IMG/VR virus record: IMGVR_UViG_3300032250_000184
Location: 8,708 to 72,707 of that record
Reading direction: 5' to 3' (one strand)
Length of the DNA stretch: 64,000 nucleotides
From: a virus
Taxonomy: Duplodnaviria > Caudoviricetes
This document shows, piece after piece, positions 8,463 through 38,732 of the stretch (positions within the stretch are counted from its first letter, which is position 1; each line of letters opens with the position of its first letter). Under the pieces are notes generated by a model. It made no database searches. It saw nothing but the letters and a program-made list of their open reading frames with translations, and was not told the origin of the DNA. Both the position numbers and the translations under genes were made by a program.

Positions 8463-9071
8463 TTATGTTCCTAAAATATTCAGCGCTTTTCTATAATTCT
8501 CTTCCCTCTCAGGCAAACCAATGTATCCGCCATTAATCACTTTAGTCATTACCTTAATATCACCGACATCTGCATATGAGTTGAGTTTATTGTTCTTCCA
8601 GAATAAACAAGCCGCCTCAGCTGCGCCTTGTTTGGTTTCTAGATACCTAGTTACTTGTTCTAAGTCCATTCCAACAGTATCGGCAAACTTTTGATAGTTA
8701 TATTTGCCTGTTAATTGAATTAGACCTCTACCTCTGTATTTCCATCCATCTCCACTCAATTCATCACCATTGCCTAAACGATTAGCATAAACAAAATTAG
8801 CAATCATCTCAGGTTGTCTAGCATACTTATTTGCTAGTTCTGGTGATGTAAATCTTTTTGGCCAAGTCATCACTAAACCTTTGGCGCCATAATTTAAATT
8901 TTCTATTAGTTTCTCAAAATGTCCAGATTCATGTGAACATTGAGCTATAAATGCAGCAATCCTCTGTGGAGAGTCTATATTATATTTAGGCAATAAATTG
9001 TTTAGAATTTCAGCCCATTCAATAGAATCTTTTTTTATTTGTAATTTTTGTAACATCTCAGAAGTAATCAT
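8463..9071 (-). CDS. Endolysin, glycoside hydrolase family 19
   Basis: FIAQCSHESG, YRGRGLIQLTGKYNY, TKVINGG GH19 motifs. Confidence 0.9.
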   Translation of the reverse strand: MITSEMLQKLQIKKDSIEWAEILNNLLPKYNIDSPQRIAAFIAQCSHESGHFEKLIENLNYGAKGLVMTWPKRFTSPELANKYARQPEMIANFVYANRLGNGDELSGDGWKYRGRGLIQLTGKYNYQKFADTVGMDLEQVTRYLETKQGAAEAACLFWKNNKLNSYADVGDIKVMTKVINGGYIGLPEREENYRKALNILGT

Positions 9072-30632: not shown

Positions 30633-33166
30633 GAAAAGAAATCCTCTATTGAACTAGTTTTTTCTGTTGACCACTTCATACAATCTAAAATAACTTTGAT
30701 AGGTTCAAGAAATGCTTTGTCGAATTGCATATCATAATCGATGTATTCTTGCATTTCAAATTCTTTAGGTAAACGAGAAGGATAAGATATGACTGTATCT
30801 TTAAATGGATTTGGCATTTTTAAATAAGTAAACTTAACTTTTTCACCTTCTTGTATTAGTGGATACTTTTTGGTGAGATTCAATCGTTTTAGATTCGTAT
30901 TATAGATAATCGCACCCTTAACATGAATTGGTGTGCCTTTCTTGTAAAGATGTACCGCATCAGAATAGGTATTTAGCCCATTTAGTCCACGAGGAAAAGA
31001 TATTTCTTCTACAGGCAGAGTTTTAAATTCTGCTCTGAAATCTGCAATGAACTTATGAATATCTTCTTGTGTTCCGTTTACCATTAATTGAATTGCCTGT
31101 TTCATCTTCTCACGAATGGCAGAAGGTGTGGACGATTTAATCATCTCAAGACCCATCACCTTCATCTGCGGCTCGTTATACTGCACACCCTCATTATTGT
31201 ATACATTTAGAATGTAACGCTTCTTGGCCGTCCAAATACCTTTATTGGAAAGGCCTTCTCGTTTCATCTGCATTTTTTGGTCATAAGCATGAACATACGT
31301 AGCAAGCTCTTGATAACTTTTGTCAATAAAAGGTTGTAACTTATCTTCACAGACCTTGTCCATGAAGGCGATAACTTGTTTAATGTCAGTCTGGTTTGGA
31401 TACACCTTCTTAACAAGTTCACCAAGGTGGAGATAAATCGAATCTGTGTCAGAGGCGATAACATAATCTTCTTCCGTTTTCAATAAGTTGTTCATGTATT
31501 GGTTAATCTTATTTTCGATCCAACGAATACTTAATTGTCCAGCAGTTGTAACACCCAAAGCCATTCTTAGGTCATAAAATCTAAAATATTGAGAACCAAG
31601 AGCACCGTAAGCAGAGTTAAGAGAAACTTTTTTGGCGAGCTGAATATTGTTGTACTTAGCGATTCGTTTTTCGATTTCGTATTTTTTCGATTCATCTGTT
31701 TCATTTTCATACTCCTGTTTTGCAGCCAACATCATCTTTTTAAACTTACTTCTATCTTGATACATTTCTTCCATCATCTTAGGTAAGAAACCTTGAATGT
31801 CTGTACGAAAGAATTGTCCGTTTGGAGTGAGTGTAACATTCTCTAAACCAGATGTATCAACCGATTTAGTTAGGAGTTTTTCGACCGAAACACCTTGTGA
31901 TAAAACATTCCTCATCTCTTGAGTATAATCTTCAGGCTCGATCAAAGTTTCTGGAGAAATATTATATTGCATCATCAGGTGTGGATAGAGTGAGTTCAAA
32001 TCGAAACTAGCAACCCAATCATGTAGTCCTGTCTTTGGTGTTTTAACATATGCACCCTCAAACATTCCATCTTTTTCTTTTACTTCTCTTGGTGGAACAA
32101 TAATGTTTTTCTCACGCAAGTAGGAATAAGTCATTGCATCCCACATGCGAGTCTGTGCAAAAATATCTTCATAGTTGGATTTTGTATCGTAGGCCAGAGT
32201 TACACCTAGTTCCAACAGTTTCAACTTTTCTTCAAGACGAACAATCAATTCAACGTCTTTAATGTTATACTCAATAAACTTTTGATAGTTTAAACGATAT
32301 AGTGCATGTAGATTATCATATTCATCATAGGCAATCTTACCTTCACCCAGCTCGACTTGTGCAATGTTATCTAAACGATAAGATTCTTGTGACTTACCAC
32401 CTGGCGCATACCATTTGTATAGTTCAATATAATCAAGTGATGCAACACCAACAATGTCGTAAGCGATTAACTCACGGCCATTGATTCGGGTCTTTCTTTC
32501 GGTAAGATATTTCCAAGGAGACAAGGTTTTGGTTTCATCTTCACCTAGAATTTTACGGAAACGATTGATGATGTATGGTATGTCAAAGAACTTGGTATTC
32601 CAACCAGTAAGAATATCAGGACACACTTTTGTCCAGAGTGCCATGAATTGTTTGCATAAAGAATATTCATCTTTACACTTCACATAAACTTCTTCACCTT
32701 GTGTAACATACTCACCACAACCAAACACATAAGTTTTACCGTTAAGGTATTTTACCGCAATTGCTGTGATGGGTTCGTTTGCTTCATAAGGATCAGGAAA
32801 TCCATTCTCGGAACCAACCTCGATATCGATTACAGCAATTAAGACTTTATCTTGGTCATAGTCAACCATGCCTTGGTGTTGGTCGGCAATGTAAGCATAT
32901 TCAAATCGTGTTTGGCCATAGACTTTAGAAGCACCAGACACACCTTCAAACTGCTTGATGTAATCTCTTGCCTCTTTAGTTGTACCAAATACTTTTTGAT
33001 CTAGATAATCACCAGTGAGTGTGGTGAAATTAGTAACTCGTTTGGATGGTAGAAAAAGAGAAGGAGAATACTCAATTCTTTGCTTTACTCTCTTACCATC
33101 TATAATACCACGGTAGAGAATGTTACTACCAAAACATTGAACATTAGTATAGAATGATGAACTCAA
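30629..33166 (-). CDS. 43: Family B DNA polymerase (gp43), uninterrupted
   Basis: DIEVGS exo, SFDLNSLYPH, KVSLNSAYG, SDTDSIY. Confidence 0.97.
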   Translation of the reverse strand: MSSSFYTNVQCFGSNILYRGIIDGKRVKQRIEYSPSLFLPSKRVTNFTTLTGDYLDQKVFGTTKEARDYIKQFEGVSGASKVYGQTRFEYAYIADQHQGMVDYDQDKVLIAVIDIEVGSENGFPDPYEANEPITAIAVKYLNGKTYVFGCGEYVTQGEEVYVKCKDEYSLCKQFMALWTKVCPDILTGWNTKFFDIPYIINRFRKILGEDETKTLSPWKYLTERKTRINGRELIAYDIVGVASLDYIELYKWYAPGGKSQESYRLDNIAQVELGEGKIAYDEYDNLHALYRLNYQKFIEYNIKDVELIVRLEEKLKLLELGVTLAYDTKSNYEDIFAQTRMWDAMTYSYLREKNIIVPPREVKEKDGMFEGAYVKTPKTGLHDWVASFDLNSLYPHLMMQYNISPETLIEPEDYTQEMRNVLSQGVSVEKLLTKSVDTSGLENVTLTPNGQFFRTDIQGFLPKMMEEMYQDRSKFKKMMLAAKQEYENETDESKKYEIEKRIAKYNNIQLAKKVSLNSAYGALGSQYFRFYDLRMALGVTTAGQLSIRWIENKINQYMNNLLKTEEDYVIASDTDSIYLHLGELVKKVYPNQTDIKQVIAFMDKVCEDKLQPFIDKSYQELATYVHAYDQKMQMKREGLSNKGIWTAKKRYILNVYNNEGVQYNEPQMKVMGLEMIKSSTPSAIREKMKQAIQLMVNGTQEDIHKFIADFRAEFKTLPVEEISFPRGLNGLNTYSDAVHLYKKGTPIHVKGAIIYNTNLKRLNLTKKYPLIQEGEKVKFTYLKMPNPFKDTVISYPSRLPKEFEMQEYIDYDMQFDKAFLEPIKVILDCMKWSTEKTSSIEDFFS

Positions 33167-33167
33167 T

Positions 33168-33479
33168 TTAGCCTGTAATTAAAGATTTGGTTGGCGGAAG
33201 AACGATACCAGAACCAAAAATTTGATTGTAGTTTGTAATAAAATCTTCCGCAGGAACATAGGAGTATACTACATTCTTCTTAGCTAAGGCAACCAGTGCA
33301 TTTGATTTTTGTTCGGCATGAATGGGAAACGGTGCGAATCCAACAGAGGGTTGGCCATCTTTACCACGAACCACGGCAATACCAACAGGATTAACTATTA
33401 CAAATTCGGTTTCAGATTCAGATTCAACTTCTCCAAGAACATCTTCACCGGTTATTAATTTAAGTGCTAAAACTTTCAT
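33168..33479 (-). CDS. Small conserved protein (Sm-like pattern)
   Basis: MKVLALKLITGEDVLGE; GGAGA RBS; longer track ORF starts inside a tRNA. Confidence 0.7.
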   Translation of the reverse strand: MKVLALKLITGEDVLGEVESESETEFVIVNPVGIAVVRGKDGQPSVGFAPFPIHAEQKSNALVALAKKNVVYSYVPAEDFITNYNQIFGSGIVLPPTKSLITG

Positions 33480-33500
33480 TATACTATCTCCATTTTTGAT

Positions 33501-33574
33501 TGGTTGCGGATCCTGGAGTCGAACCAAGAACTGAGGATTATGAGTCCTCTGTGATACCTTTTCACCAACCCGCT
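33501..33574 (-). tRNA. tRNA-CAT, initiator-like (fMet)
   Basis: Cloverleaf, loop CTCATAA, A1.A72 mismatch, ends CCGCA-ACCA like fMet; anticodon stem lacks three G-C pairs. Confidence 0.85.
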
Positions 33575-33581
33575 ATATTTT

Positions 33582-33821
33582 TTAACCGTAAATAAAAATT
33601 ACTTCGTTGATAGGAACAACATATTGTTCATCTTCAACTTTTACCGCTTTGTTCCAATTTAAGAGCAACTCATCACCAATTGAAACCTCATCGACTTTAG
33701 GACCAAGAGCAACAACTACAGCTCGATCAGGTTCTTCTGTCCACTTTAAAATGATTCCAGACTCGGTTTGTTTTTCTGCTGCAATTCGTGTTACAATAAT
33801 GTTATCTCTTAACGGTTTCAT
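33582..33821 (-). CDS. groES: GroES/Cpn10 co-chaperonin (short)
   Basis: MKPLRDNIIV, TESGII, VVVALGP, V.IGD. Confidence 0.88.
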   Translation of the reverse strand: MKPLRDNIIVTRIAAEKQTESGIILKWTEEPDRAVVVALGPKVDEVSIGDELLLNWNKAVKVEDEQYVVPINEVIFIYG

Positions 33822-33848
33822 AATTACCTTTCATGTGAATTTGATGTT

Positions 33849-34205
33849 GCATTGTTGAGAATACTGTTTCGTGTTTAAAAGATTCTGGCCTGTGCTGGTT
33901 AACCCAGTCATTGCACGGATCTTTCCTCAATCGCATCGTTTACTCGGCATCAGCGTTCCGATATTTCCCAGATTTTGGGCTGACTTAACAAGGATAGTTC
34001 ACTTCCCTAACAGTTGGGATTGCTTACTCTTTCGCTCACATTCTCAACAATGCTCTCTGTCCCTAAACAGAGAACTTTGTGTCTTGTTACTTTTGGACGA
34101 CAATCCTCAGGCCTGAATGAGGATACTCGGACACGGCCATTCGTCTTTGTATTTTTAGCCTGTTTGTGCATAACAGAATAGGGATTATCTGTCATAGGCA
34201 TGGCA
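33849..34205 (-). ncRNA. Unidentified structured RNA between tRNA-Gly and groES
   Basis: Perfect 14-bp long-range stem 34053-34040/33862-33849 plus several hairpins; no credible ORF. Confidence 0.6.
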
Positions 34206-34213
34206 CCTCTGTT

Positions 34214-34287
34214 TGGAGCGGGATGTCAGAATCGAACTGACAACGAAAGGTTGGAAACCTTTAGTTTTACCATTAAACTAATCCCGC
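34214..34287 (-). tRNA. tRNA-Gly(TCC)
   Basis: Cloverleaf, loop TTTCCAA, U73, CCA. Confidence 0.95.
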
Positions 34288-34288
34288 A

Positions 34289-34423
34289 TTAATCTTTATC
34301 TTTTCTTGCTTTTTTCTTTGCTTCTAATCTATCTAATAAATCTAATAATTCTTGTTTTGTTAATGTTCTACCCCAGCTAGATGTTGTTGTGTTTGCTTCA
34401 GGAACATCTTTAACTTTTTTCAC
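34289..34423 (-). CDS. Small hypothetical protein (44 aa)
   Basis: GTG start; MKKVKDVPEANTTTSSWGRTLTKQELLDLLDRLEAKKKARKDKD; below track cutoff. Confidence 0.5.
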   Translation of the reverse strand: MKKVKDVPEANTTTSSWGRTLTKQELLDLLDRLEAKKKARKDKD

Positions 34424-34426
34424 GAC

Positions 34427-34642
34427 TTATTCTGTAGCTACTGGCTCTGCACTTTTGCCAAAAGTTTGTGTTTGTAAACGATTTGCAATAGCTCTTTTAA
34501 TTTTAGAAATGTGTTTCTTACGAGCACTATCTAACAATTTTGTTAATTGAGCAATGTTCAAAGGACCTAAACGTGGCTTGCCAGTTTTGGTCAACATAGG
34601 ATTTGCTTTACGAGTTTTTTGATTTGAACCTTTTCCTGCCAT
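34427..34642 (-). CDS. Small basic protein
   Basis: AAAGGA RBS; Lys/Arg-rich 71 aa. Confidence 0.7.
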   Translation of the reverse strand: MAGKGSNQKTRKANPMLTKTGKPRLGPLNIAQLTKLLDSARKKHISKIKRAIANRLQTQTFGKSAEPVATE

Positions 34643-34668
34643 AATATTTTATCCTTTAAACTAAAATT

Positions 34669-34735
34669 TGGAGCGGTGGTCTGCTATGCTCAGATAATTC
34701 AAGAGGGTATCTCAAATCGTACTATTACACACCGC
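34669..34735 (-). ncRNA. Degenerate tRNA-Gly-like RNA (67 nt, ACC anticodon-like)
   Basis: GCGGTG/CACCGC acceptor, U73-CCA, mini D arm, loop ATACCCT, T loop AGCATAG. Confidence 0.65.
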
Positions 34736-34803
34736 ATATCCTGCTTACCGGTTACAGGGTCACTTAATGACGGAAGTTTTGCTGTTTCACAACAGTAAAT
34801 CTA

Positions 34804-34851
34804 ATTATATACTTATCTATGATGTTTGTCAATAGATAATGTGGTACACTT
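34804..34851 (-). promoter_or_regulatory. Consensus sigma70 promoter with upstream 12-bp box and dyad over -35
   Basis: TTGACA-17-TATAAT; AAGTGTACCACA at 34851-34840; TTATCTAT/ATAGATAA inverted repeat. Confidence 0.8.
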
Positions 34852-34925
34852 GGTGGGCCAAGATAGAATTGAACTATCACTCCATCGATTATGAGTCGAT
34901 TGCTTTACCATTAAGCTACTGGCCC
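34851..34925 (-). tRNA. tRNA-CAT (Ile2 or Met)
   Basis: Cloverleaf, loop CTCATAA, CCA; Ile2 assignment is inference. Confidence 0.9.
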
Positions 34926-34926
34926 C

Positions 34927-35001
34927 TGGTCCGGCTAGCAGGAATCGAACCCACATTAAGGGAGTAGAAATCCCCTGTATTATCCATTATACTATAGCCA
35001 G
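34927..35001 (-). tRNA. tRNA-Arg(TCT)
   Basis: Cloverleaf, loop TTTCTAC, CCA. Confidence 0.92.
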
Positions 35002-35128
35002 AATTATTATAGTGAAGCCACACCAAGGTGAAATGAACTTATTAGTAAATCCTTGGAAATACCACAGAGGTTCCGGCTTACCAATCCCGACCTGTTAAGG
35101 TTTAGGTGTGCTTCACTATAATAATTCT
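35000..35128. repeat. 24-bp inverted repeat enclosing about 80 nt
   Basis: 35000-35024 pairs with 35105-35128 with a single bulged C. Confidence 0.8.
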
Positions 35129-35246
35129 TTTTAGATTTCTCTAATCGTCTTATAGCTTTGTTACTTTTTTTATGACTCCCAGCTTTACGAAACAATGCCA
35201 ATTTGACAAGATAGTTTCGTGGTTGAGGAGTATTTTTCTTCTTCAT
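35007..35246 (-). CDS. Small basic protein whose C-terminal half runs through the inverted-repeat element
   Basis: AAGGAGA RBS; MKKKNTPQPRNYLVKLALFRKAGSH; stop codon lies in the 3' arm. Confidence 0.6.
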   Translation of the reverse strand: MKKKNTPQPRNYLVKLALFRKAGSHKKSNKAIRRLEKSKKNYYSEAHLNLNRSGLVSRNLCGISKDLLISSFHLGVASL

Positions 35247-35264
35247 AATACTCTCCTTAAAAAA

Positions 35265-35339
35265 TGGTGGTAATGAGTAGATTCGAACTACTGACCTACT
35301 CCGTATGAAGGAGTTGCACTACCGCTGTGCTACATTACC
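35265..35339 (-). tRNA. tRNA-Met(CAT), probably elongator
   Basis: Cloverleaf, loop TTCATAC, CCA. Confidence 0.9.
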
Positions 35340-35340
35340 A

Positions 35341-35431
35341 TGGAGCTCGTTGTGTAAACGGGACGGCAAACTCCGTTGTTGTTCGGCCGAGAGGATCACC
35401 CAGCCCAATCATTACACTTGATACAACAATC
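35341..35431 (-). ncRNA. 91-nt CCA-terminated non-cloverleaf RNA
   Basis: Fills the Tyr-Met gap almost exactly; 7-bp acceptor-like stem, 6-bp extension, two hairpins. Confidence 0.55.
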
Positions 35432-35516
35432 TGGTGGGGAATACTGGGATCGAACCAGTCGTGCCGCAAGGCGGCGGATTTACAGTCCGCTGAATCACCA
35501 TTGATTCTTCTTCCCC
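35432..35516 (-). tRNA. tRNA-Tyr(GTA)
   Basis: Long variable arm, loop CTGTAAA, CCA. Confidence 0.93.
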
Positions 35517-35522
35517 AAAACT

Positions 35523-35599
35523 TGGCTCCCTAGCGTGGGTACGATCCACGGACCTTCTGATTAACAGTCAGACGCTACTACCAACTGAGCTACTAGGGA
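35523..35599 (-). tRNA. tRNA-Asn(GTT)
   Basis: Loop CTGTTAA, G73, CCA; atypical T loop ATCGTAC. Confidence 0.9.
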
Positions 35600-36237
35600 A
35601 TATTCTTAATTACTCTACCTTTTTTCCAACCTTCAGGTATGATATCGTTCTTTTTAATTCTAATACTTTCAATTCCATTTGTGATCCACATTGTACCATA
35701 TTGTGAATTGCCTAAACCTTTTTGGTGAATACTGTTTTTTTCACCTATTTTTTTCTTGGATTCTTCTTTGTGTTTTTTACCTATCCAAGAGTAAGTATCT
35801 TTCCACGTTCTTAACAAACCTTTTTTGTGTAGTTCTTTGGATTGTTTTCTATTTCTTTCAATATATTCTTCACGAAATTTTGAATCTTCATTTAATCTTT
35901 TTATTAAAGCATCACTACCTAATTTACCAATTCGTTTTCGTTGTTCGTCTGTTATATTTTTGTTTATAAAATCAAAACCACCATCACCACCTTTTTTCAA
36001 GTTGTATGTGTGTGGCCCAATTTCAACCAATTCTTTTTCTTTCTCAAACATTTCTTCGGCTGAAGAAGCTTCAAAAATAATTTCTTTAATAAAACTATCT
36101 ACACCATATTTTGATATAGCTCGTTTTAAATATTTACCGGAACCAAAATAACCATCATTTTTGTCTCTGGTTTTATGACAACCGATATAAATCTTATTGT
36201 TAATAGTATTTGTTATCTTATATACAAGGTAAAACAT
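35593..36237 (-). CDS. Seg-like GIY-YIG homing endonuclease in the tRNA cluster
   Basis: YLVYKITNTINNKIYIGCH...YFGSG; HKEESKKKIG NUMOD3-like; WITNG. Confidence 0.88.
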   Translation of the reverse strand: MFYLVYKITNTINNKIYIGCHKTRDKNDGYFGSGKYLKRAISKYGVDSFIKEIIFEASSAEEMFEKEKELVEIGPHTYNLKKGGDGGFDFINKNITDEQRKRIGKLGSDALIKRLNEDSKFREEYIERNRKQSKELHKKGLLRTWKDTYSWIGKKHKEESKKKIGEKNSIHQKGLGNSQYGTMWITNGIESIRIKKNDIIPEGWKKGRVIKNIP

Positions 36238-36281
36238 ATTTTCTCCCAATTATATAATATATATAAAAGTTCGATATTGTA

Positions 36282-36352
36282 TGCTCTGTGAGAGAATCGA
36301 ACTCCCATATCAGGATTACAAATCCAGCGTAATACCATTATACTAACAGAGC
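36282..36352 (-). tRNA. tRNA-Thr(TGT), no encoded CCA
   Basis: Cloverleaf, loop TTTGTAA; discriminator A followed by TAC. Confidence 0.88.
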
Positions 36353-36356
36353 CTAG

Positions 36357-36431
36357 TGGTACACGATACCAGAATCGAACTGGTCTTACCGCCGTGAAAG
36401 GGCGGTGTCCTAACCGATAGACGAATCGTGC
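36357..36431 (-). tRNA. tRNA-Glu(TTC)
   Basis: Cloverleaf, loop CTTTCAC, CCA. Confidence 0.93.
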
Positions 36432-36444
36432 ATCTAAGTAAAAC

Positions 36445-36473
36445 ATTATACATCAATCCACACAATAAGTCAA
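36445..36473 (-). promoter_or_regulatory. sigma70 promoter internal to the tRNA array
   Basis: TTGACT-17-TATAAT just before tRNA-Glu. Confidence 0.75.
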
Positions 36474-36497
36474 GCGGCTGTTGTATGGAAACAACAC

Positions 36498-36572
36498 TGG
36501 TCGGAGTAGAAAGAATCGAACTTTCGAAATCTCGCTCCCAAAGCGAGTGACATACCACTTGCCGATACTCCG
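36498..36572 (-). tRNA. tRNA-Pro(TGG)
   Basis: Cloverleaf, loop TTTGGGA, CCA. Confidence 0.93.
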
Positions 36573-36590
36573 TTTAACTTTACAATAACC

Positions 36591-36664
36591 GGGCATCCCG
36601 TGAGAGAATCGAACTCCCGCCAAGGCGTTTGGAGTGCCTTGTGCTACCATTACACCAACGAGAA
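36591..36664 (-). tRNA. tRNA-Trp(CCA), ends CCC rather than CCA
   Basis: Loop CTCCAAA, G73, T1.T72 mismatch. Confidence 0.85.
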
Positions 36665-36666
36665 CT

Positions 36667-36753
36667 TGGCGGAAAGTATTGGGATCGAACCAATGCACCC
36701 ATTTCTGAATGACGGTTTAGCAAACCGTTGCCTTGCCACTCGGCCAACTTTCC
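36667..36753 (-). tRNA. tRNA-Ser(GCT)
   Basis: Long variable arm, loop TTGCTAA, G73, CCA. Confidence 0.93.
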
Positions 36754-36759
36754 GTAATC

Positions 36760-36847
36760 TGGAGGAAGATGTGAGATTCGAACTCACGGACCTATTACAG
36801 CCTCTAGTTTTCAAGACTAGTGCAATCGACCACTCTGCCAATCTTCC
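36760..36847 (-). tRNA. tRNA-Ser(TGA)
   Basis: Long variable arm, loop CTTGAAA, CCA; U73. Confidence 0.92.
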
Positions 36848-36849
36848 TT

Positions 36850-36926
36850 TGGTGGAGGTGACAGAGAATCGAACCTGCGACCTACTGCTTGCAAAGCAGC
36901 CGCTCTACCAACTGAGCTACACCCCC
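36850..36926 (-). tRNA. tRNA-Ala(TGC)
   Basis: G3.U70 pair, loop TTTGCAA, CCA. Confidence 0.93.
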
Positions 36927-36961
36927 AAAAACAAAAAACCCAAGATGTTTAGTCTTGGGTT
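36927..36961 (-). terminator. Intrinsic terminator (attenuator) immediately 5' of tRNA-Ala
   Basis: AACCCAAGA-ctaaaca-TCTTGGGTT then TTTTGTTTTT. Confidence 0.85.
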
Positions 36962-36986
36962 CGTATAAACTTTGTTACTTAAAAAT

Positions 36987-37061
36987 TTACAAACGAACCC
37001 CTACCTGCCACCCTGCGGCTGGTGATGTATAATTGGATGGGCTTGTAAATATATTTTTCAT
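36987..37061 (-). CDS. Leaderless leader peptide MKNIFTSPSNYTSPAAGWQVGVRL
   Basis: ATG is 7 nt after the -10 box; last codons overlap antiterminator strand GGGTTCGT. Confidence 0.65.
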   Translation of the reverse strand: MKNIFTSPSNYTSPAAGWQVGVRL

Positions 37062-37067
37062 TGTTCT

Positions 37068-37096
37068 ATTATATAGGATCTTTTTTGTCTTGTCAA
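37068..37096 (-). promoter_or_regulatory. Consensus sigma70 promoter of the tRNA operon
   Basis: TTGACA-17-TATAAT. Confidence 0.85.
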
Positions 37097-37109
37097 GCAA
37101 TTTTATTAA

Positions 37110-37607
37110 TTATTTCCAACCAAGCGGTTCTATTTCTATTGGTGAGTCAGGATCAACAACATGGTCAAATACTTCCCACAACTTTTCTTTTACTGCAAAC
37201 TTTGTAAACAATCCAGATTGCATCCCGTAAGCTTCTACTTCCCATGGTTGGAACCAATAATCTGGTTCCAAAACTTTACTACCTTTCCATCGAGTAAGAT
37301 TTATATTAACATCACCATGTACATACTGTTTAATATGTACCATCTCATGACTTAGTGTTTTTAATATCTCAGCTGCACCAATACCTGGATGTAATTCTAT
37401 TTCAAATTGTCTTGGTTTATTACTACGACTAAACTCTACAACTGAAGCATATCCGTGTGCATTAATTTTTGAACTGAACTTAATTCTTAAAAAAATGTTT
37501 TCCAACATCCTAGGTGTCATTAAAGATTCTGCGTAAAACAGAGCAGCCCTTTTCACATAGGGACGGAAACGTTGTTTATCGGGACAACCGACTATACTTA
37601 ACTGCAT
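37110..37607 (-). CDS. HExxH zinc metallopeptidase-like protein
   Basis: LSHEMVHIKQY, PWEVEAY; AAGGAGA RBS before ATG 37607. Confidence 0.75.
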   Translation of the reverse strand: MQLSIVGCPDKQRFRPYVKRAALFYAESLMTPRMLENIFLRIKFSSKINAHGYASVVEFSRSNKPRQFEIELHPGIGAAEILKTLSHEMVHIKQYVHGDVNINLTRWKGSKVLEPDYWFQPWEVEAYGMQSGLFTKFAVKEKLWEVFDHVVDPDSPIEIEPLGWK

Positions 37608-37670
37608 TTTAGGTCTCTCCTTAGTAAATTGACCCAATAATTGCATTAATCCGTTGATACTCACACTGCT

Positions 37671-37754
37671 TATTTATGACCAACACACATTTCACCAGGT
37701 GAAATTACTTCTGTATTTGTTCTATTATTATATCACATTTGGTCAAAAAGTCAA
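37671..37754 (-). promoter_or_regulatory. sigma70 promoter, 17-bp palindrome and late promoter
   Basis: TTGACT 37754-37749, TATAAT 37732-37727; ATTTCACC-A-GGTGAAAT 37689-37705; ATAAATA 37677-37671. Confidence 0.6.
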
Positions 37755-38139
37755 GCCCCTGTGAATCCCTGTAGGAATCACGGTAATATACCTTTTTGAT
37801 GCCTGCGGTATATATTTGTTTAGCACAATCAATGCAAGGTGCATGGGTCAGGAACATCATGGAACCATCTCCAGACTCGGAACTCTTGGCCAACTTAGCG
37901 ATGGCATTGGCCTCAGCGTGAATCACCTCAGGTTTGGTTTTTGAGAATACCGTATCATCTGATAGTACGGTATAGTTTTCACATTCATTTGTCCAACCAG
38001 CAGGCATTCCATTATAACCAATAGAGATAATTCTATCTTCTTTAACTACAATCGCACCTACCTGTAACCGTTTGGCTGAAGATAATTTGGCAAACCTTTC
38101 GGCCACGTCCATGTAGGCATCAATAAATTTTTGTTTCAT
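37705..38139 (-). CDS. cd: dCMP deaminase
   Basis: IGYNG, HAEANAI, PCIDC. Confidence 0.92.
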   Translation of the reverse strand: MKQKFIDAYMDVAERFAKLSSAKRLQVGAIVVKEDRIISIGYNGMPAGWTNECENYTVLSDDTVFSKTKPEVIHAEANAIAKLAKSSESGDGSMMFLTHAPCIDCAKQIYTAGIKKVYYRDSYRDSQGLDFLTKCDIIIEQIQK

Positions 38140-38732
38140 CGTTTTGTAAAACTTTCAATAATTCTAATAAATGACCATACATTATTCCTAATGGATGAAT
38201 CATAAAGTGCCATCTGTTCTAATACAGCATCTTCAATTCCAGCACTAAATTGATTTTTCGAAATTTTAATTGTGGCTTCTTTTTCGAAAGAATCTAAAGT
38301 AACAATCGTCATGTTATTCTTTTTGGCAATATGTTGTATCGTTTTATTCTCCGACAAACAATGCATGAATAATGATTCCGAACCCATTGCTCTGGCCCAA
38401 ATAGCACCACGATTAAACAATTCTTGGCCAATTTTTTGATCACGATAATCAGGACTAACCGTTAATCCTAATTCAGCAGATTTTGTTTTTTTGTCGTAAG
38501 CAACATGACAAGAAGCTACAAAATTGCATCCATCTTCCACAACAAACCACATATTCTTAAAACCATAATGTTCGAAAGATTTATCACAAATGTATCTTTC
38601 TATGATATCATCATTAACAATGTTGCCAAATCTCAATCTCCTATCATCACCACGAATGTCATCATAGAAGTGTTTTACCAATCTATCAATGTCCATTTTG
38701 TGTGGAACTAATTTTCTAGGAATCATTACCAA
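38136..38732 (-). CDS. GNAT family acetyltransferase
   Basis: LRFG, AELGLTVSPDYRDQKIGQELF motif A, N...IAKK. Confidence 0.8.
   Translation of the reverse strand: MVMIPRKLVPHKMDIDRLVKHFYDDIRGDDRRLRFGNIVNDDIIERYICDKSFEHYGFKNMWFVVEDGCNFVASCHVAYDKKTKSAELGLTVSPDYRDQKIGQELFNRGAIWARAMGSESLFMHCLSENKTIQHIAKKNNMTIVTLDSFEKEATIKISKNQFSAGIEDAVLEQMALYDSSIRNNVWSFIRIIESFTKR

Follow-up and report, generated by a model that had tools for sequence, protein, structure and literature searches.

A probable leader-peptide attenuator at the head of a tRNA operon in an uncultured T4-like phage

The DNA analysed here, called the window throughout, is a stretch of 64,000 nucleotides (positions 8,708 to 72,707) of the IMG/VR virus record IMGVR_UViG_3300032250_000184 and makes up most of this 72.7-kb record, whose completeness was estimated at 43%. 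The window has a guanine-plus-cytosine content of about 36% and encodes a T4-type DNA polymerase and clamp loader, and the polymerase shares about 51% identity with its counterparts in the nearest cultured phages, the T4-like cyanophages. Fourteen transfer RNA (tRNA) genes were identified on the minus strand at 33501-36926. Directly upstream of the element under study, which occupies 36927-37096, lies a gene of 184 residues (37110-37664). The element combines a promoter, a short open reading frame (ORF) and competing helices that end at the first tRNA gene, and it is probably a ribosome-mediated transcription attenuator of the trp/his/ilv type placed at the head of the phage tRNA operon. Its parts are the following:

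37068-37096, minus strand: sigma-70-type promoter TTGACA-17-TATAAT, with the -35 box at 37096-37091 and the -10 box at 37073-37068, scoring 12/12.
36987-37061, minus strand: leader ORF, running from ATG 37061 through 24 sense codons to TAA 36989-36987.
37034-37051, minus strand: region 1 (leader nucleotides 11-28), predicted to pair with region 2 (nucleotides 61-78) when the leader is free of ribosomes.
36984-37001, minus strand: region 2 (leader nucleotides 61-78), consisting of the last four codons, the stop codon and 3 nucleotides; 5' arm of the antiterminator.
36957-36973, minus strand: region 3 (leader nucleotides 89-105), 3' arm of the antiterminator, its final GAACCC serving as terminator 5' arm too.
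36927-36962, minus strand: intrinsic terminator, with a 10-pair stem (36962-36936) and a T-run ending at 36927.

Both the consensus promoter and the ATG with its 24-codon ORF had been read in a first-pass annotation of the sequence and were recovered as described there. Among the 7 kb scanned, the full promoter score was equalled at just one further site. Six bases lie between the -10 box and the ATG at 37061, so that the usual transcription start (+1) would coincide with the A of the ATG, and the ORF is probably leaderless. The leader RNA as a whole measures 135 nucleotides. The -35 region, TTGCTTGACA (37080-37100, minus strand), also shows what we take to be a likeness to the MotA box of T4 (TGCTT).

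The antiterminator core pairs GGGTTCGT (37000-36993) with ACGAACCC (36964-36957) in perfect complementarity, as claimed previously, and folding adds a second stack of 9 base pairs that includes the stop codon, making the helix larger than first described. Because GAACCC forms both the last six bases of the antiterminator 3' arm and the first six of the terminator stem, the two helices are mutually exclusive. The exclusivity proposed in the first-pass annotation therefore stands, as does the meeting of T-run and tRNA gene, with tRNA-Ala starting at 36926, one base past the end of the T-run, and the stem counts 10 pairs where nine had been claimed. By folding, the hairpin 37000-36957 reaches -17.2 kcal/mol, compared with -12.7 kcal/mol for the terminator. 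The free full-length leader is predicted to fold into the 1:2 and 3:4 pairings together (fold z = -3.2). This 1:2 pairing, which the first reading had missed, is that of a trp-type attenuator and adds to the trp/his/pheST-type architecture that the same reading had recognised.

Relatives by synteny were drawn from the best 80 of 393 relatives of the 184-residue upstream gene in viral contigs. In most of these 80 a tRNA array comes after the gene, and a homologue of the leader can be recognised in some of them, with an ATG after a -10 box accompanied by the same end motif, helix and terminator. The homologous ORFs span 21-33 codons, and within the lineage of the window (lineage A) their length differs from that in the window by whole codons, with insertions and deletions in multiples of three and with the stop codon staying within the antiterminator arm. 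The -10 box lies 5-7 nucleotides upstream of the ATG throughout, and the -35 box is retained in some relatives only. In the lineage-A alignment of 22 sequences (A1), 100% of cells are paired in both the antiterminator and the terminator, with one and two covarying pairs, respectively. One relative (L068/L084) replaces a G:C pair of the helix by U:A through changes on both sides, and here the leader is rich in Leu codons and the array begins with tRNA-Leu. A metagenome scan yielded only a handful of additional lineage-A variants.

Region 1 is graded as probable. The duplex between regions 1 and 2 is predicted in all 22 members of the lineage at a modest mean z of -1.6, and the ATTTAC core of region 1 is conserved in two different reading frames. 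A compensatory change on both sides of this duplex was found in L084, and it is the only one seen. Pairing of region 2 with the first codons of the ORF recurs in 18 of the 31 clusters of the wider family described below, again with modest z-scores.

This wider family was found by scanning viral contigs for GGGGTTC, a gap, GAACCC, a gap and GGGTTTTTT, a pattern that contains no tRNA feature. Once tRNA T-arms and a few unrelated matches had been removed, the set comprised 65 elements in 31 peptide clusters. A variant-core scan, in which the seventh helix pair was left open and ORFs were called automatically, gave 17 clusters among the matches listed, which brings the family to about 48 peptide clusters (31 + 17, the latter among the matches listed). 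The family comes from contigs of uncultured T4-like phages in IMG/VR and is defined by an antiterminator core of the form GGGGTT(C/T) ... (G/A)AACCC.

In the 31-cluster set the ORF has 21-52 codons, and its stop lies 7-28 nucleotides past the start of GGGGTTC in every curated member. Across the family GGGGTTC is read in all three frames, so that its conservation is at the level of RNA, not of peptide. The leader frame, which had been chosen for its openness, contains no stop in the 1104 codons of the 31 cluster representatives, compared with 77 and 95 stops in the other two frames, and it is likewise open in the 17 variant-core clusters among the matches listed. At this base composition, it is far more than chance would give that every independent cluster has an open frame of 21 codons or more with its end inside region 2. 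The start context is of two kinds: 16 clusters have their ATG 3-9 nucleotides after a -10-like hexamer, and nine have a Shine-Dalgarno leader instead.

The association with tRNA genes is close to exclusive. A same-strand tRNA gene follows within 1 kb in 56 of the 60 assessable elements (28 of 29 clusters; median 179 nucleotides), and the remaining four either have their arrays 1.2-2 kb away or are truncated where the contig ends. In a bacterial-genome control with the same motif, 72 matches were tRNA T-arms and none of the 49 others had a downstream tRNA. Among the matches listed in the variant-core scan, a short ORF ending in region 2 was present in 34 of 38 elements followed by tRNAs and in 12 of 60 without them.

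The helix itself is also supported across the family. The antiterminator extends on average 2.0 pairs beyond the six that the motif forces, compared with 0.99 ± 0.18 when partners are swapped between clusters (maximum 1.66 in 5000 permutations), and some members have 12-13 contiguous antiterminator pairs. Where the core pair is other than C:G in tRNA-associated, ORF-bearing elements among the matches listed, it is U:A in 27, G:C in two and unpaired in five, against a background, likewise among the matches listed, of 37% paired where both a downstream tRNA and an ORF of this kind are lacking. One of the family members with a G:C core pair, L262, lies on a 476-kb contig of a very large phage, where a leader of 25 codons composed almost only of Ser, Leu, Cys and Tyr is followed by tRNAs for Cys, Cys, Tyr, Tyr, Leu, Leu, Leu and Ser.

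When the leader of the window and those of two other clusters were compared by BLAST with 50,697 cultured-phage records, no homologue was found and the one weak match, to a Streptococcus phage, was attributed to chance. The motif is absent from the T4-like cyanophages S-CRM01, S-PM2 and S-RIM50. On these grounds no cultured carrier of the family can be named.

What the leader encodes was compared with what follows it. The tRNA genes of the window are arranged as follows:

36498-36926, minus strand: first tRNA block, Ala(tgc), Ser(tga), Ser(gct), Trp(cca) and Pro(tgg), strictly behind the attenuator.
36445-36473, minus strand: internal promoter-like site TTGACT-17-TATAAT (11/12), between tRNA-Pro and tRNA-Glu.
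33501-36431, minus strand: remaining array, Glu, Thr, Asn, Tyr, Met, Arg, a tRNA with anticodon CAT, Gly and an initiator-like Met.

Of codons 3-18 of the leader, 14 of 16 specify amino acids that have a tRNA in the array. The 15 of 16 reported in the first-pass annotation would be reached if the CAT tRNA at 34851-34925 were tRNA-Ile2; its acceptor stem carries C4-G69 and C5-G68 and its sole E. coli matches (E = 0.6) are annotated as tRNA-Ile, which weakly suggests that it may be a lysidine-bearing tRNA of this kind. Within codons 2-18, nine of the 11 non-Met anticodons find a strictly cognate codon (P = 8e-4 against random 17-codon windows from the phage's own ORFs), and 12 of the 17 codons are cognate to some tRNA of the array (P = 2e-3). 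All five anticodons of the first block have an exactly cognate codon in the leader (P = 7e-4), and the five tRNAs of this block account for eight leader codons. All three P values rest on the same random 17-codon comparison. Since the match in this single window was noticed post hoc, the relatives weigh more.

Across 23 cluster representatives, the codons ahead of region 2 match the amino acids of their own array at a rate of 0.635, compared with 0.568 ± 0.014 for permuted arrays (p = 5e-5), and within region 2 the rate does not clearly exceed that for permuted arrays (p = 0.06). The excess over the long ORFs of each locus corresponds to a Stouffer z of 4.1 for amino acids and 4.7 for codons. 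The variant-core set of 17 clusters among the matches listed served as an independent replication and gave 0.612 against 0.516 ± 0.017 (p = 2e-4). In lineage A, 17 distinct leader-array pairs match at 0.553 against 0.443 ± 0.024, with a p of 5e-5 that is inflated to an unspecified degree by shared ancestry. The match also depends on distance from the leader. Amino acids of tRNAs 1-3 occur in the leader of the same locus in 99% of cases and in permuted leaders in 86% (p = 2e-4), the corresponding values being 95 and 87% for ranks 4-6 and 92 and 85% for ranks 7-10, with no excess beyond rank 10.

Individual leaders of lineage A follow the content of their arrays. Ala codons accompany tRNA-Ala in four cases and occur once without it, Pro codons accompany tRNA-Pro in seven and occur three times without it, and neither tRNA is found without its codon. 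For Ala, Pro, Ser, His, Tyr, Asn, Thr, Trp and Cys, a tRNA is never present with its amino acid missing from the leader. Differences between sister leaders mirror those between their arrays: in L183, codons and tRNAs for Ser, Tyr, Gly and Glu are both present, and in L205 four Leu codons have taken the place of these codons. A tRNA-Leu was predicted for L205 from its Leu-rich leader before the array was inspected, and the array was found to consist of Leu, Trp, Thr, Asn and Met. The comparison with related phages that the first-pass annotation had proposed thus found leaders that keep the ORF and the competing helices through compensatory changes, in place of hairpins kept without ORF or codon match, and a leader composition that changes together with tRNA content.

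Further cases were noted beside these. In L064 (L064:3657-3740) and L195 (L195:343-430) a tRNA-His that ARAGORN missed is situated after the terminator and ahead of the first tRNA called; these two genes were recognised from their 90-95% identity to the tRNA-His called in L083, and His codons are present in both leaders. The leader of L094 has no Trp codon and draws heavily on Ser, Ile, Gly, Thr, Arg, Phe, Asn and Cys, and its array of 16 tRNAs represents exactly those eight amino acids and has no tRNA-Trp (match 79% against a background of 44%, P = 3e-5).

Apart from region 1, which is less firm than the rest, the architecture is, as far as sequence can tell, that of a leader-peptide attenuator. 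It comprises a conserved short ORF whose end overlaps the 5' arm of the antiterminator, an intrinsic terminator ahead of the regulated genes, an antiterminator that excludes the terminator and covaries, and regulatory codons that are cognate, at the level of amino acids, to the controlled product. The start of transcription, the translation of the ORF, the stalling and the direction of the response are what we infer from this architecture. Transcription would begin at or beside the ATG, and a ribosome would translate the 24-codon leader as RNA polymerase proceeds. With fast decoding, the ribosome would arrive at the last codons or the stop and cover region 2, so that the 2:3 pairing could not form, the 3:4 terminator would, and transcription would end at about 36927-36935, just ahead of tRNA-Ala. 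If cognate charged tRNA were scarce, the ribosome would instead stall at roughly codons 2-17, covering region 1 and leaving region 2 free; the stronger 2:3 antiterminator would then form first and the polymerase would enter the tRNA genes.

Phages of this family would thus probably make more tRNA when ribosomes slow at the leader codons. The codons at which stalling would act are mostly served by the tRNAs encoded just downstream, which would amount to negative feedback on tRNA supply, with induction on depletion. What would be sensed is the total decoding rate of the codons on this roster, to which host and phage tRNAs contribute alike. To link the response to starvation or to an anticodon-nuclease defence is speculation. 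We are evenly divided on whether the family represents a general circuit of phage tRNA homeostasis, in which a roster leader samples the codons of its block and slow decoding of any one of them would open the terminator, so that all tRNAs of the block are replenished. The slowing could then stem from early infection, a mismatch with host codon usage, phage-induced decay of host tRNAs or host anticodon nucleases, and the terminated leader RNA of about 130 nucleotides might also act in trans.

Several observations weigh against the attenuator as described, or narrow it. The internal promoter-like site at 36473-36445 would bypass it for most of the array, so that only the Ala, Ser, Ser, Trp and Pro tRNAs lie strictly behind it; the site could feed the rest of the array independently, and its position between tRNA-Pro and tRNA-Glu makes more than one transcription unit probable. 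Strict gating of the tRNA array, as claimed in the first-pass annotation, would accordingly cover the first five tRNAs only. The fold of the ribosome-free leader is ambiguous, since the minimum-free-energy structure is the antiterminator at nucleotide 106 and the terminator at full length. The Trp codon lies 9 nucleotides before region 2, a spacing that footprint and helicase data make borderline for a stalled ribosome that is to leave region 2 free. Each amino acid occurs only one to three times in the leader, unlike the codon runs of classical attenuators, and sensitivity may therefore be low.

The match between leader and array has its own exceptions. The excess over the own proteome is carried by a minority of clusters and is missing in L178, L143, L170 and L147, and the permutation tests remove shared ancestry only in part. 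At the codon level the fit is modest (309 cognate synonymous codons against 290.5 expected, z = 2.8), so that the codon match claimed earlier holds for amino acids and to a lesser extent for exact codons. The leader of L195 has no Leu codon, yet two Leu tRNAs and an Arg tRNA follow it, and in L119 and L192 Pro and Ala codons persist although the corresponding tRNAs are missing. The tRNA-Leu of L205 has an anticodon called as cag by ARAGORN, but the leader spells Leu as CTA and TTA. In lineage A no array matches the Lys, Ile and Phe codons near the N-terminus, with the possible Ile2 of the window as a qualification. Such exceptions may reflect recent turnover of the arrays, as in L115 and L196, which share a leader and differ in their arrays.

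These exceptions bear directly on the closest alternative, that the same attenuator reports general translation capacity and not specific tRNAs, with ribosome or initiation-factor availability, the coupling of a leaderless mRNA or host shut-off as the quantity sensed and with the likeness of leader and array owed partly to inheritance and partly to composition. The clusters without enrichment over their own proteome, the match of 0.85 that permuted leaders already reach, the small codon-level excess, the one to three codons per amino acid and loci such as L195 all speak for it. However, a signal specific to the pairing of leader and array appeared in three separate tests (the 23 clusters, lineage A and the replication), and it declines with distance along the array. 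Sister leaders L183 and L205 differ exactly in the amino acids in which their arrays differ, and Ala and Pro codons are restricted to places where tRNA-Ala and tRNA-Pro are, or recently were, present. On balance we consider a sensor of general capacity unlikely.

Two further explanations dispense with sensing altogether. T4-like phages typically have, in their hyperplastic regions, tiny ORFs set in cassettes with a strong promoter and terminator (the PeSL literature), and the ORF could be an ordinary small early gene in such a T4-type promoter/stem-loop cassette, ended by the terminator, with the tRNAs transcribed by read-through or from other promoters, such as those found within the array. 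Its peptides, however, are poorly conserved, whereas the RNA motifs are conserved across frames; the stop always falls within a covarying helix that competes with the terminator; and the element is nearly exclusive to tRNA arrays whose content its composition tracks. We hold this to be very improbable. Slightly less credible still is a role of the hairpins in pre-tRNA processing, in stability or in the binding of a protein or ligand, for instance as an RNase site or a factor-dependent antiterminator, with an ORF that has no role. The terminator hairpin does abut the +1 of the tRNA, from which RNase P would remove it, and GGGGTTC does resemble a T-arm strand, but the ORF is open in every cluster, starting 5-7 nucleotides after a -10 box or behind a Shine-Dalgarno sequence, and the leader has no Rfam family match and no called tRNA-like fold.

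Other candidates were rejected outright. A permissive Rfam scan (E <= 1) of 32500-38500 returned tRNAs only and no match in the leader, which rules out a T-box riboswitch and the known small-RNA and leader families. A tRNA or tRNA-like gene is ruled out as well, as neither ARAGORN nor Rfam called a cloverleaf at 36927-37096. The motif is not the relic of a tRNA T-arm, since no tRNA fold forms in the leader, which is moreover maintained as an ORF, and arrest by the nascent peptide at the conserved Trp was dismissed as the main explanation because the spacing from Trp to stop varies from 3 to 18 codons between clusters.

On the origin of the motif, many tRNA genes, at L088, L116, L125, L140 and L169 and at 72 bacterial loci (L312 onward), have behind them a terminator with a GAACCC 5' flank, which is complementary to the GGGGTTC strand of the tRNA's own T-arm. 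Region 2 of the attenuator could derive from such a junction of tRNA and terminator.

The remaining array of the window (33501-36431) is interspersed with a homing-endonuclease ORF, small RNAs and small ORFs. The endonuclease ORF is of the GIY-YIG type (phrog_314, E = 1e-40) and lies at 35593-36249 on the minus strand, between tRNA-Thr and tRNA-Asn. Three tRNAs of the window have the anticodon CAT, at 33501-33574, 34851-34925 and 35265-35339, of which the first is initiator-like by its A1/A72 mismatch and the last looks like an elongator tRNA-Met. A second promoter scoring 12/12, at 34832-34804 on the minus strand, drives a CCA-ended tRNA-like RNA of about 70 nucleotides (about 34736-34670) that ARAGORN did not call, and a small basic ORF of 71 codons (34642-34427, minus strand) lies 3' of it. 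In many relatives (e.g. L026, L030, L035 and L047) this module, 34427-34832 in the window, stands directly after the 184-residue gene, in the place that the attenuator occupies here.

Compared with known systems, the element that we read as a tRNA attenuator is closest to the enterobacterial trpL, hisL, thrL, ilvL/ivbL, leuL and pheL attenuators. It shares with them a short leader ORF that would be translated, the 2:3 antiterminator and 3:4 terminator segments, between which the position of the ribosome would select the helix, with a probable 1:2 pairing besides, and codons cognate to what the operon supplies, the thr and ilv leaders also reading more than one amino acid. It differs in controlling tRNAs where they control biosynthetic enzymes, and in reading about ten amino acids one to three times each where they carry runs of one or two. 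Its members are phage-borne and mostly look leaderless, their stop lies within the antiterminator arm, and their terminator abuts the tRNA +1. Attenuation of E. coli pheST, and of similar aminoacyl-tRNA synthetase genes, likewise regulates a component of the decoding machinery by sensing the supply of charged tRNA, but pheST controls a synthetase through Phe codons alone and involves a single amino acid and no tRNA genes.

T-box riboswitches are also attenuators in which competing terminator and antiterminator helices respond to the status of tRNA; in these, a specifier loop makes direct contact with uncharged tRNA and no ORF is required, whereas the sensor proposed here is a conserved ORF in a 135-nucleotide leader. 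Leaderless polycysteine short ORFs of mycobacteria reportedly act as attenuators too, and these would resemble the phage leaders in being leaderless short ORFs whose translation rate controls downstream expression. They are cellular, read a single amino acid, serve cysteine-related genes and have a different RNA architecture. The attenuation mechanism itself is known, and what is new are the tRNAs as regulated product, a roster that spans about ten amino acids and a start that looks leaderless in most members. Full-text literature searches, with most subscription journals lying outside their coverage, found no account of phage tRNA genes controlled by a leader peptide.

The roles of phage tRNAs in codon supply, in host shut-off and in escape from tRNA-cleaving defences are under active study, and we know of essentially nothing on how their genes are regulated. 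Leader composition and tRNA content vary jointly across the many natural members of the family, which makes the hypothesis directly testable with reporters, and the family offers a means of predicting which tRNAs share a transcription unit as well as, for synthetic biology, a compact device that senses decoding speed. If the reading is true, the element would be the most multivalent attenuator known, with about ten amino acids read, classical attenuation would extend to tRNAs as the regulated product, and tRNA synthesis in these phages would be driven by demand.

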